A DNA stretch of 64,000 nt. It comes from Schmidtea nova (lineage: Eukaryota). Under the pieces are notes generated by a model. It made no database searches. It was not told the origin of the DNA and saw only the letters and a program-made list of their open reading frames with translations. Numbering within the stretch: position 1 is the first letter of the stretch; every line of letters begins with the position of its first letter. Shown in pieces: positions 11,833 through 14,800 of the stretch. The DNA lies in contig CM097883.1 of NCBI GenBank assembly GCA_044892505.1, positions 119,102,001 through 119,166,000 of the forward strand, in the 5' to 3' direction. Both the position numbers and the translations under genes were made by a program.

Positions 11833-14800
11833 ATCCCTTCTAGCGGATCAACCGACCTATTCATCTCTGGGGAGCCAACCTTCAGATTCCTAACTTTATT
11901 CTTCCACTTCGGCTTATATTTGTTTTTGTCTTTAAACATTTCTTCGACCAATAATCTGGTACGTTCTTGGATACATACCCTCAAACTTATGGACATTCTC
12001 AGTTCCAAATTTACTGTTGCCAATTTATCGCTAATGCTGTTTATATATCTCGTTCCCACTGCTAACATTTTTTCAGTTTCCGCACAATTCTTTATTTTTT
12101 CTTCTAACCTTTTAATTTCACTTTTATATTCCAATTCGCCCGTTTTTATTTTACTTTCAAGATTTTCTATCTTTGAATGAAGTTGTGTTACTAAATCCGA
12201 CTTATCAACAAGAACTTCATTATCAACAGTTGAACCATTCACAACCTTGTCAAATGATTCCATTTTATTGCCACTAATTGCATCTTTACATCCTATTGGA
12301 AGATAAGCTGACTGCTCACTACCTGTTTTCTCTGCAATTATAACTGGGCAATTTATAAGTTCAGTCGCTTCTTCCTTTTTACATTTCATCCTAGAATTTC
12401 CGATAACATCTTCATAATTTCCTAGATCTGTGTCAAGATCGTTAATTTTTCCATTTTCCCTTTTATCAACATTGGAATTTTCAACTATTCCTTGCCTAAT
12501 ATTTTCACCATTAAAAGAGTTCTCTCCAATAATTTCCTCAAAATTACAATTTTCTTCAATATCGTTAATATTTTCCACAATTTTCTCATCGACAATGCAG
12601 TTTTCTTCGAAATTATTCTCATTTACTGCCTGCTCATTTTTTACTGACATTATAGATTCAATTTCCGTCATTACTTCCTGCACTAATTCGTTTGAAGAAG
12701 TATTTATTCCATCCTCGCCTACAATATCAACCGACTCAGAGTTATCAACTATTTTACTAGACACACCACTATTCACTGCGCTATTCTTACCTCGACCTGA
12801 ATTCAAATCACCACCACCAGTTCGAACCTCACCAAGAACTACTTCCTGAGCTTTAGGTGCAAAACTCTCGATACATTCCTCTTCACACTGTTCTCTTTGA
12901 CAAGTCTCCATTAACGTGTTCACATTTTGTTTCCCACCTCTTAGTGCCGTTATTCGTTCTCCACCCTTACTCGGGTTTCGTTTTACATCATTGCAAGCGG
13001 TTGTAAAGTGTGAGTACCTTTTCCTGTCAACCTTTTCAGCCGCCTTGAAGTTTCTCTGCCCGTCTTGCCAATTGAAATCCTTTTCCTGACCAAATCCATA
13101 TAATATTTCATTTGTCACTCGTATTAGTTCAGCTTCCTTTTGCACCCACTCCTTTAACCGTTTTACTGACTCCTCACTTTCATCTGTTGCTTGCTCTCTT
13201 TTCCATTGCATAAGTAGAGAAGCTGGCAATTTCTTTAACAATTGGTGCAATAGACAGCCTCTCTGAAGGTCCTCTTCTCTTCCAATTTCCTTGAACCGTA
13301 CCTCCATGGATTCCAACAATCCAACGAAACTATCCAAGTCTTTTATTTCTCCTTCGCGAACCGGCCGAAACTTGTCTACAGTTTCTAGCATAATCAGGTA
13401 ACTACGTTCTTCACCTCCGTAACGCCTTTCCAATTTCCCTTTCGCCATCTTGTAGCCTTCGGCGGTATAACCCAGTGGCTCTATCATTCTCAGAGGCTCA
13501 CCTAACAAGTACTGCCTAAGATGCAGCATTTTATCTTCGGCCGTTCCATCTACTTTATCTATTACCGTGTTGAAGGCCGCCTTCCAATTTTCAAACTCGA
13601 CCACTTTCCCATCGAAAATCGGAATCTTAATTTTCTGCAACCGATTTAAACTCTTCTTTTCTATTGGCGCTTCATATTCCGATGTCTTTGACCCCTCGCT
13701 CACAACACTTTGTTCTGTTCTTTTTTGCATTATCTTACCTATCTCTTCTTTTTTTGTTTCCAGGTCACAGATATCTTTTTCCACTAATTCTAACTCCTCC
13801 TTCTTGTTTAATTTGTCACACAGCTCGACAAGTCTTAGCCACTCGTCCAATGTATCCTCAAATTCTTTCTCATATAATACCAGTGTGTCCTTTATTTCCC
13901 CGACCATTTCTGCCAACAATAAGTTACGCGCTCGAGTTACTTTCCATTTTTTAGATCGCCGACGGGTCCATAAACTTTTGAACTCTTCCTCATTATTACC
14001 ACCTCTTAAACGAAGAACAAGATGAAGAGTAGATTCCTTTTGTATGTTGTAATCTGCCAAGATCCTTCCGCCTTCCAATTGTTTACCCGCAAATATCAAT
14101 CTCTGTTGATCAGGTGGGATTCCCTCTTTGTCTTGAATTTTCGTTTTTACCTTTTCTATTGTGTCACTTGATTCAACCTCCAGGGTAATAGTTTTCCCTG
14201 TTAACGTTTTTACAAATATTTGCATTCCCCCTTCCATTCTCAAAACTAGACCGAGAGTTGATTCCTTGGTGGGAATAGTCGTATTTCGATTAATTAACTT
14301 ACTGAAAACGCCGCCCCGAGTTTCAATACCCAACGAAAGCGGTGTAACATCTAGCAATAATACATCAATCACATACTCAGCAAGAACTCCTCCCTGTATT
14401 GCTGCACCCATTGCAACAGCTTCATCTCGATTCACACTCTTACTAAGAACTCTACCGAAAAGTTTCTGTACAGTTTCTTGAACATTAGGCATTCTTGTCA
14501 TCTCACCAACTAACAACACTTCTTTAATGTCCGATGTTTTTACCTCTGCATCTTTAATAGCTTTTTCACAAGGTTCAATTGCTCTCTTAATTAGGTGCTC
14601 CACTAATTGTTCTAATTTTGACCGTGTGAACCTTAAACTCAAATGTTTAGGTCCTGTATTATCCATTGTCAAATATGGAAGATTAATGTGCGTTTGAATA
14701 GCTGATGACAGGTCAATTTTAGCCTTTTCAGCTGCTTCTCTAACTCTCTGTAAAGCCATAAGGACTTTATCAACATCAACGCCTTGATCACATTTAAATT

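Follow-up and report, generated by a model that had tools for sequence, protein, structure and literature searches.

Ubiquitin as a likely deubiquitinase-cleavable module ahead of Gag in a BEL/Pao retrotransposon clade represented in Schmidtea nova

The Gag protein of long terminal repeat (LTR) retrotransposons normally begins at its own methionine and is matured by the protease of the element. A stretch of 64,000 nt from Schmidtea nova (assembly GCA_044892505.1, contig CM097883.1, positions 119,102,001–119,166,000; referred to as the window, in which all parts of the element described here lie on the reverse strand) raises the question why an LTR element should carry a complete ubiquitin directly ahead of Gag. 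A sequence-only reading of the window had proposed that a cut by host deubiquitinases after the terminal Gly-Gly replaces the protease and exposes an Asn N-degron on Gag. The comparison reported here backs ubiquitin as a deubiquitinase site freeing Gag, through selection on the domain, retention of Gly-Gly and the position of the junction, but not the replacement of the protease. Ubiquitin is probably a selected in-frame module that joins a variable leader to Gag and likely provides the site at which host deubiquitinases free Gag or Gag-Pol from a leader started within the LTR.

The complete ubiquitin of 76 residues ending in LRLRGG (14225–13998) is followed in frame by NNEEEF of Gag, as had been stated, and is predicted to be cut after Gly76. 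The six differences from vertebrate ubiquitin listed before (P19S, N25K, A28T, D52G, T55I and S57A; checked against unit P0013) proved exact. P19S was nevertheless rejected as a change of the element, because the host ubiquitin genes already carry S19 or A19, so that five changes are its own (N25K, A28T, D52G, T55I and S57A). The seven canonical lysines and the L8/I44/V70 patch are indeed retained (again versus P0013), and K25 adds an eighth lysine. The tail of a preceding polyubiquitin unit, read from the sequence at 14226–14264, has drifted as described; across the family the canonical LRLRGG occurs at this upstream position in 1 of 87 rows. Structure modelling yielded the ubiquitin fold (predicted local distance difference test, pLDDT, 85–94 over residues 1–70; Z 14.9 and root-mean-square deviation 0.9 Å over 72 residues to 7eao_A), then a short linker and a helix, the first of Gag, which starts right after the junction (pLDDT 89.8). 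A fold search with the ubiquitin-Gag model returned a list filled by ubiquitin, and a single-sequence model of pLDDT 41 was not used. Downstream follow the N-terminal helical domain of Gag (13647–13997; first helix predicted from the second residue after Gly-Gly) and its capsid-type domain DUF1759 (PF03564, Pfam; 13191–13616). LRLRGG-N has the form of a cleavable linear fusion, i.e., an L-R-G-G C-terminus with a residue other than Pro next to it. Genes for polyubiquitin and for fusions of the Ub-L40 and Ub-S27a type are present in the host, which must therefore process linear fusions.

The element belongs to a family of hundreds of copies, and a comparison with three contig sets showed the family to be present there. 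Exact pattern matching of one junction type alone gave 417 matches genome-wide, 408 of them with Gly-Gly, a proportion that by itself mostly reflects the youth of the copies; the candidate counts of 1675–2712 do not represent copy numbers. LRLRGG is intact in 73 of 78 type-A copies, each of the five exceptions being confined to one copy, and the expected conservation of the motif across genomic copies is thereby borne out. At 81 junctions Gly75 is encoded by GGC (22), GGT (25) or GGA (32), two codons being non-Gly.

Selection was assessed as the ratio of nonsynonymous to synonymous diversity (piN/piS) in 75–89 copies per segment, comprising genomic loci after removal of host genes and duplicates. 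The ratio amounts to 0.20 for ubiquitin (95 % codon bootstrap 0.13–0.30, 89 copies), 0.17 for the N-terminal domain and 0.16 for the capsid domain of Gag, versus 0.89 (0.63–1.35) for an adjoining piece of a host Hsp70 gene and 1.06 for the spacer. Purifying selection acts on ubiquitin as it does on Gag, and the neighbouring Hsp70 piece is neutral. Among the 78 type-A copies, ubiquitin variants shared between copies have a ratio (w) of 0.18 and single-copy variants one of 0.92, the latter as expected for decay after insertion; shared variants in the Hsp70 piece reach 1.24. A ratio of 0.03 (dN/dS versus host ubiquitin units) was not used, because synonymous sites are saturated, also between the host units themselves. 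That ubiquitin travels as a neutral passenger like the Hsp70 piece would agree with a leader full of captured housekeeping fragments and with a second, upstream ubiquitin in decay; it is scarcely conceivable given 0.20 next to 0.89, and given a position and a Gly-Gly conserved over a clade with 27–42 % Gag identity. Passenger status was rejected on the selection contrast.

The arrangement extends well beyond this genome. A protein search retrieved five BEL/Pao polyproteins that are 34–42 % identical over the region queried. Pfam recognizes ubiquitin in three of them, and the other two have its tail only; all five of these long distant polyproteins (P0002, P0014, P0015, P0026 and P0027) contain ubiquitin or its tail together with a protease. 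Among the best 150 Gag relatives (50 % clustering), many of which are truncated gene calls, six have a ubiquitin match and one more has the tail, and a ubiquitin-like domain was found in 3 of 80 metagenome loci kept from 211. A second Gag type within the genome, 38–40 % identical in the capsid domain, is preceded by a ubiquitin ending in LRLNGG. Gag identity to the distant ubiquitin-bearing relatives is 27–42 %, and L-x-G-G precedes Gag in 15 of 16 lineages, the residue after it never being Pro. A scan of viral contigs revealed no relative.

The fold of ubiquitin and L-x-G-G match Gag in strength of conservation. In 13 aligned ubiquitin domains L73, G75 and G76 are invariant, while M1, I44, K48, K63, R72 and R74 vary; the lineages retaining the residue number 4 of 11 for I44, 7 of 11 for K48, 5 of 13 for K63 and 6 of 13 for R72, and Met1 is replaced by I, F or V in 5 of 10. 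Invariance of the end amid drift elsewhere suggests a cut site rather than a ubiquitin that builds chains or binds receptors. Ubiquitin could alternatively act as a modifier or signal and keep Gly-Gly for that purpose, staying uncut to recruit ESCRT or the proteasome, or being conjugated after the cut together with the leader. The type in the window, with L8/I44/V70, R72 and most lysines in place, would suit this role, and a HECT piece in the leader shows some constraint. It is improbable in view of the lineage counts just given, of K29R being common to 23 of 78 copies, and of the HECT piece covering only positions 2–120 of the 306-position model.

The residue exposed by the predicted cut varies. 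It is N, G, C, S, Q or M among copies and lineages, and the second Asn of the window's NNEEE occurs at 1 of 81 junctions, most copies reading NDEEE. Although type A1 does have Asn after Gly-Gly, the Asn N-degron does not hold as a core feature, and a conserved one was rejected. Gag similarity begins 1–11 residues after Gly-Gly, and in relatives without ubiquitin the same helix begins a short distance behind their own Met; by homology, a cut at Gly-Gly would regenerate the natural N-terminus of Gag.

If cleavage frees Gag, the reading frame ahead of ubiquitin is what it would remove, and this in-frame leader from the LTR was absent from the sequence-only reading. A single stop-free open reading frame (ORF) of 1368 codons (11796–15902) runs from the 5' LTR into the 3' LTR. 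Its first ATG, at 15887 in the context AAAATGG, lies within the 5' LTR, and the frame passes through the primer binding site, which is translated as G-S-R-A-W. Pfam matches along the 1368 residues begin with the HECT and then the Hsp70 piece, followed by ubiquitin (E 4e-29) and DUF1759 (E 3.5e-9). Across 77 copies, 36 different distances separate primer site and ubiquitin, and 28 of these are in frame. Lengths common to at least two copies are in frame in 15 of 15 cases, those seen in a single copy in 13 of 21, and the primer site is in frame with ubiquitin in 69 of the 77 copies. This contrast between shared and single-copy lengths fits translation of the leader during transposition. The older copies L102, L106 and L112 fall into a common out-of-frame class, but their frameshifts lie at different places.

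Relatives without ubiquitin have the same primer site, with an ATG after it. Among 33 metagenome loci combining this primer site with a Gag match, the three with ubiquitin are open for at least 85 codons upstream of the primer site; in the 30 without ubiquitin the frame is closed before the primer site in 25 and in five runs at most 25 codons past it. The cut could also take place with translation starting at or near ubiquitin, by internal start or splicing; ubiquitin would then be an aid to expression or folding, a role known from ribosomal fusion proteins, and an open leader would be merely inherited or would avoid nonsense decay. Retention of ubiquitin Met1 in 74 of 78 copies is compatible with this, as are several short upstream ATGs that precede the long frame. 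Such a start is nonetheless rather unlikely, since Met1 is Leu in the other four copies and lost in half of the lineages compared, all 15 shared leader lengths are in frame, and some LTRs hold the first codons of host genes in frame (a presumably calmodulin-like start, and RNA polymerase from residue 1).

The leader itself, up to about 650 residues ahead of ubiquitin, is a mosaic of captured host mRNA pieces that varies by subfamily, with Pfam matches to HECT, TCP-1 and the N-terminus of the RNA polymerase large subunit. Further pieces are, as we take them from their motifs, the calmodulin-like start (EF-hand match weak, E 0.04) and a glutathione-reductase-like piece. The RNA polymerase piece in L074, the one capture examined for intron loss, matches five host segments at 92–100 % from residue 1; four gaps of about 45–80 nt have been removed, i.e., four short introns, and the piece therefore arrived via spliced mRNA. 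In the window, the leader includes a captured fragment of a HECT E3 ligase within the LTR (15264–15887; Pfam HECT at 15611–15264, E 9.6e-18), which recurs in the 3' LTR (E 7.8e-19), a remnant (24 codons) of the second, upstream ubiquitin (14865–14936), decayed or deleted across the family, and the fragment of host mitochondrial Hsp70 (mortalin; 14265–14849), 85 % identical in amino acids to the host gene (locus L084) and evolving neutrally at that level. At the capture junction TKKS of Hsp70 meets KEST of ubiquitin, a microsimilarity seen at the protein level only. Leaders of distant relatives contain Hsp90 (P0125), a TRAF-type zinc finger (P0027) or a polyubiquitin tail (P0015), and residues 1–130 of P0026, lacking a Pfam match, presumably resemble part of a Ulp1-type protease. 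As separate observations, the host mitochondrial Hsp70 shares 92 % identity with Dugesia japonica mortalin and at most 85 % with other named matches, which identifies the host as a dugesiid planarian, and ubiquitin units in decay, each behind a ubiquitin tail and a different upstream peptide, were detected at L075:4645–4917, L076:4587–4814 and L077:4528–4755, two of them not followed by Gag.

All coding features examined assign the element to BEL/Pao. Zinc knuckles, protease (PR), reverse transcriptase (RT), RNase H and integrase (IN) occur in BEL/Pao order in family copies, the pol order being PR-RT-RNase H-IN with Peptidase_A17 and DUF5641 (L068/L081, L069/L082). Of 30 loci of 10 kb each, eight have RT (Gag-Pol), seven have Gag and protease without RT, and further copies have neither; a protease was found in 14, 12 of which show an LLDDAS motif, and several copies have open frames of 2290–2422 codons spanning it. 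Against solved structures the protease gave an HIV-type protease as best match (E 1.4), a weak lead only. CCHC-type zinc knuckles of sister copies L068, L069 and L071 are deleted in the window copy, where a junction at 12915–12953 marks the loss of about 1 kb with knuckles and aspartic protease. An acidic, then coiled-coil-like tail (11819–12915) stands in place of pol, as in non-autonomous copies, and matched no family in a protein atlas (best score 0.89). The window copy has no pol and is a non-autonomous derivative, to which other copies would have to supply both protease and pol.

The observation that the element lacks a protease was thus correct for the window copy, by deletion, and is not a trait of the family. 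Replacement of the protease by a deubiquitinase cut, combined with an Asn N-degron tuning Gag levels, would suit the lack of a protease match in the window copy and in 16 of the 30 long loci; it is very unlikely and was rejected, since ubiquitin and protease occur together in the 14 remaining loci (seven of them without RT) and in all five long distant polyproteins, the window copy lost its protease by deletion, and the residue after Gly-Gly varies. Moreover, ubiquitin stands at the N-terminus of Gag and not at internal Gag-Pol boundaries. Just as doubtful is that the element's own aspartic protease, rather than a host enzyme, cuts L-x-G-G. A protease is present across the clade, and the changes at positions 72 and 74 would be irrelevant to it; however, a folded ubiquitin would then be unneeded, yet the whole domain is constrained, and the motifs flanking the protease, putatively its own sites, are of the S/T-H-F/V-T/V type and differ from L-x-G-G.

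In a tree of RT with 53 rows, all ten ubiquitin-bearing rows fall on one branch (SH-aLRT 99), and the ubiquitin-Gag layout appears to be an old, fixed trait of one BEL/Pao retrotransposon clade. Several points weigh against the proposed cut of an LTR-started leader and against the evidence for it. The capsid tree of 141 rows supports the clade with an SH-aLRT of only 94 and with three truncated rows inside it, and both trees are quick trees without bootstrap. P0122 ends in LKEG, and may be a dead copy; R72 and R74 are lost in several lineages, which would therefore need tolerant enzymes. Partial constraint on the HECT piece in the LTR (piN/piS 0.54, 0.35–0.95) and on the coiled tail (0.51, 0.36–0.75) is left unexplained by the model. 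The copies were chosen as best matches to the window, its Gag or Hsp70, and the sample therefore leans young. As to the leader, 8 of 77 copies are out of frame, the path from primer site to ubiquitin is fully open in only 55 of 77, the lengths represent non-independent events, and low stop counts are partly inherited, because host fragments were open frames when captured.

With these points weighed, the favoured course of events is as follows. Translation would start at the ATG in the 5' LTR and proceed through primer site and host fragments; a host enzyme of the ubiquitin-specific protease (USP) or ubiquitin C-terminal hydrolase (UCH) type would cut after Gly76, freeing Gag or Gag-Pol with its proper N-terminus, the first helix beginning right after the junction, and the aspartic protease of the element would then perform the internal Gag-Pol cuts. 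Host mRNA pieces would be acquired by template switching during reverse transcription and would be tolerated because the cut discards everything upstream.

The ubiquitin itself bears signs of renewal. Codons 1–29 are 95 % identical between the two genomic types and 89–91 % identical to one host polyubiquitin unit (71–79 % to others), codons 30–76 are 60–69 % alike between the two types, and in P0015, P0027 and P0125 the first half of ubiquitin is host-like and the second half has drifted. We infer that minus-strand synthesis switched templates, leaving the element's ubiquitin for host polyubiquitin mRNA; the element's ubiquitin would offer a homology handle for this mRNA, and its 5' part would therefore be replaced repeatedly by fresh host sequence. 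Taken further, an LTR start and a deubiquitinase cut that frees Gag would leave the upstream part unconstrained, as a sampler of host mRNAs whose joint is repaired from polyubiquitin mRNA and whose leader-ubiquitin product can be conjugated, a combined proposal that we favour by a narrow measure. LTR and leader would sample start codons, 5' ends and domain pieces and copy them to hundreds of loci, and the released leader-ubiquitin, with its free Gly-Gly end, could be conjugated to host proteins. If this is true, Gag maturation in a retrotransposon lineage requires a host protease, and the lineage constitutes a standing gene-shuffling machine.

Like the Belpaoviridae at large, the family has LTRs, primer site, polypurine tract, DUF1759 Gag, zinc knuckles and a single Gag-Pol ORF with PR-RT-RNase H-IN; it differs by ubiquitin-GG before Gag, an LTR-started ORF through a host-mRNA mosaic and a clade-specific hairpin. 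The nearest named candidate is the Flow superfamily of planarians and cnidarians (PMC3118150). The word ubiquitin does not occur in the text of this BEL/Pao survey or in its searched supplements, and LLDDAS had no match in the supplements searched as text, outside of which domain sequence files may lie. In the pestivirus bovine viral diarrhoea virus (BVDV), ubiquitin inserts before NS3 are cut by cellular hydrolases (PMC8310069, PMC13517609), and in BVDV CP Rit an N-terminally extended insert lacking Met1 is still cut after di-Gly (PMC8310069). Both systems share a captured host ubiquitin within a polyprotein, other host mRNA pieces upstream, and a cut, here predicted, that gives the authentic downstream N-terminus. 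The pestivirus insert is sporadic and bypasses the NS2 autoprotease, whereas ubiquitin here is an old, fixed clade trait alongside the element's protease; no bypass of this type is apparent here, protease and ubiquitin being combined in 14 of the 30 long loci and in each of the five long distant polyproteins. By analogy, the module probably works like the pestivirus insert, except that no protease is replaced.

LTR-mediated retroposition is known to produce partial, intron-less, multi-gene captures between or within LTRs by template switching (Tan et al. 2016, PMC5131818, citing maize Bs1). The host mRNA captures upstream of Gag, one of them shown to be intron-less, are alike; in the Drosophila cases of the same paper captures replaced part of the element's ORF, whereas here they lie in frame upstream of an intact Gag(-Pol), also with complete pol, and are likely harmless by virtue of the ubiquitin cut. 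Ubiquitin is not mentioned in that paper. Burro giant gypsy elements (PMC6431247) are also LTR elements of planarians whose single polyprotein incorporates host-derived domains, one of them Ubi2/SUMO-like, but belong to Ty3/gypsy, measure about 30 kb and have an N-terminal Gag and an internal SUMO-like domain, whereas the family here is BEL/Pao, of 5–8 kb, with ubiquitin directly before Gag. Cellular fusions (polyubiquitin, Ub-eL40, Ub-eS31 and FUBI-eS30; PMC10611586, PMC8354635) likewise present a ubiquitin fold ending in di-Gly that is removed by USPs; they start at the ubiquitin Met, whereas the element's ubiquitin is internal, behind the long leader. USP36 cuts the drifted FUBI tail and contacts R72 and R74 of ubiquitin (PMC10611586). 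No prior description of ubiquitin-Gag BEL/Pao elements was found in the literature searched by titles and abstracts, a scope outside of which Repbase reports and subscription papers lie, nor by term search inside the accessible text of PMC3118150, PMC6431247, PMC9289625, PMC11410931, PMC5131818 and PMC7828637; a prior note on such elements, e.g., on BEL1-I_SM, is possible.

A clade that likely needs a host deubiquitinase has an added step of host dependency, which may be a point of host control, and the use of ubiquitin that occurs in pestiviruses as a sporadic accident appears in this clade as a strategy of long standing. The arrangement provides a possible reason for the continued uptake of host mRNA pieces by some LTR families that yet stay functional. 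This has a bearing on gene shuffling, on small-RNA cross-silencing of host genes and on false gene models, the genome containing apparent copies of ubiquitin, Hsp70, calmodulin and HECT by the hundreds.

The element carrying the window ubiquitin is a young LTR element. Its LTRs form a direct repeat of 991 nt (3' copy at 10808–11798) with 4 differences (99.6 % identity) at a spacing of 4443 nt. The visible part of the 5' LTR extends over 15233–16241, with the CA end 4 bases before the primer site, and that of the 3' LTR over 10808–11818, with the TG start at 11818; both outer ends lie in N. A putative TATA-like box near the LTR start was located at 16155–16160 by a pattern scan of the 3' LTR copy, shifted by 4443 nt. 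The sole AATAAA of the LTR (15264–15269) lies about 35 nt before its end, a position that would turn most of the LTR into the R region; the matching N-K-I codons recur in other LTR subfamilies. The primer binding site of 18 nt (15211–15228) is complementary to the 3' end of a tRNA gene with a CAT anticodon loop, which has 1023 pattern matches genome-wide and which we take, from its sequence features, to be initiator tRNA-Met. Together with a polypurine tract read from the sequence directly before the 3' LTR (11819–11839), the TG...CA ends and the primer site correspond to BEL/Pao. Short target-site duplications are a further BEL/Pao feature; when these were checked, the outer ends of the window copy were N, and most other copies examined sit in ATT microsatellite.

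A stem-loop with the invariant loop CUAUGGGCCC (hairpin 14964–14997, loop 14985–14976) was found in the leader of the window family and in 3 of 3 ubiquitin-bearing metagenome loci, and in 0 of 31 ubiquitin-less loci having the primer site. Six of its seven pairs are changed on both sides, and its covariation score was reached by 0 of 500 shuffles, in a comparison of only four sequences from which the structure itself was drawn; in L116 the hairpin is not the minimum-energy fold (z 0.8). Complementarity to the anticodon arm of the primer tRNA involves nine bases of the loop, which also contains a self-complementary hexamer, so that a second primer contact or a dimer signal is possible.

Further observations concern the family in the genome. 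The protease of pol-less copies L071, L072, L073, L078, L080 and L097 is 51–52 % identical to that of Gag-Pol copies with the same Gag, which makes these copies mosaics that combine two lineages; the pol found with type A Gag is 86–93 % identical to that found with type B Gag. At L079 (C1:323386000–323395900) and further sites the element is arrayed head to tail in tandem, the period being about 4.5 kb. Many copies lie in or beside ATT/AAT microsatellite (flanks of L072, L073, L080, L100, L101, L109 and L115), which exceeds 6 kb in one case (L232:3217–9901), and may show a target preference; a frame of 4916 codons at L232 was rejected as an ORF, being ATT microsatellite read as poly-Ile. The primer tRNA gene forms a tandem array with a period of 458 nt on C1 near 510.09–510.14 Mb (L198).

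Elsewhere in the window, a frame-broken gypsy-like pol (RT, RNase H; 19037–21678, +) is interrupted by an integrase fragment on the opposite strand (21616–22608), which is bounded by identical direct repeats of 81 nt. A short frame at 17048–17305 (+) presumably represents the end of a GIY-YIG endonuclease. Pfam matches at 27281–27784 (+), 47296–47832 (−), 32975–34847 (−), 28697–29245 (−) and 39406–42448 (+) comprise exons of mitochondrial EF-Ts and TBP as well as transposon pieces, namely hAT transposase, DDE_3 transposase, and gypsy-type protease and integrase. Outside both ends of the ubiquitin-bearing element, a direct repeat of 71 nt (98.6 %) is located at 10598–10668 and 16640–16710.

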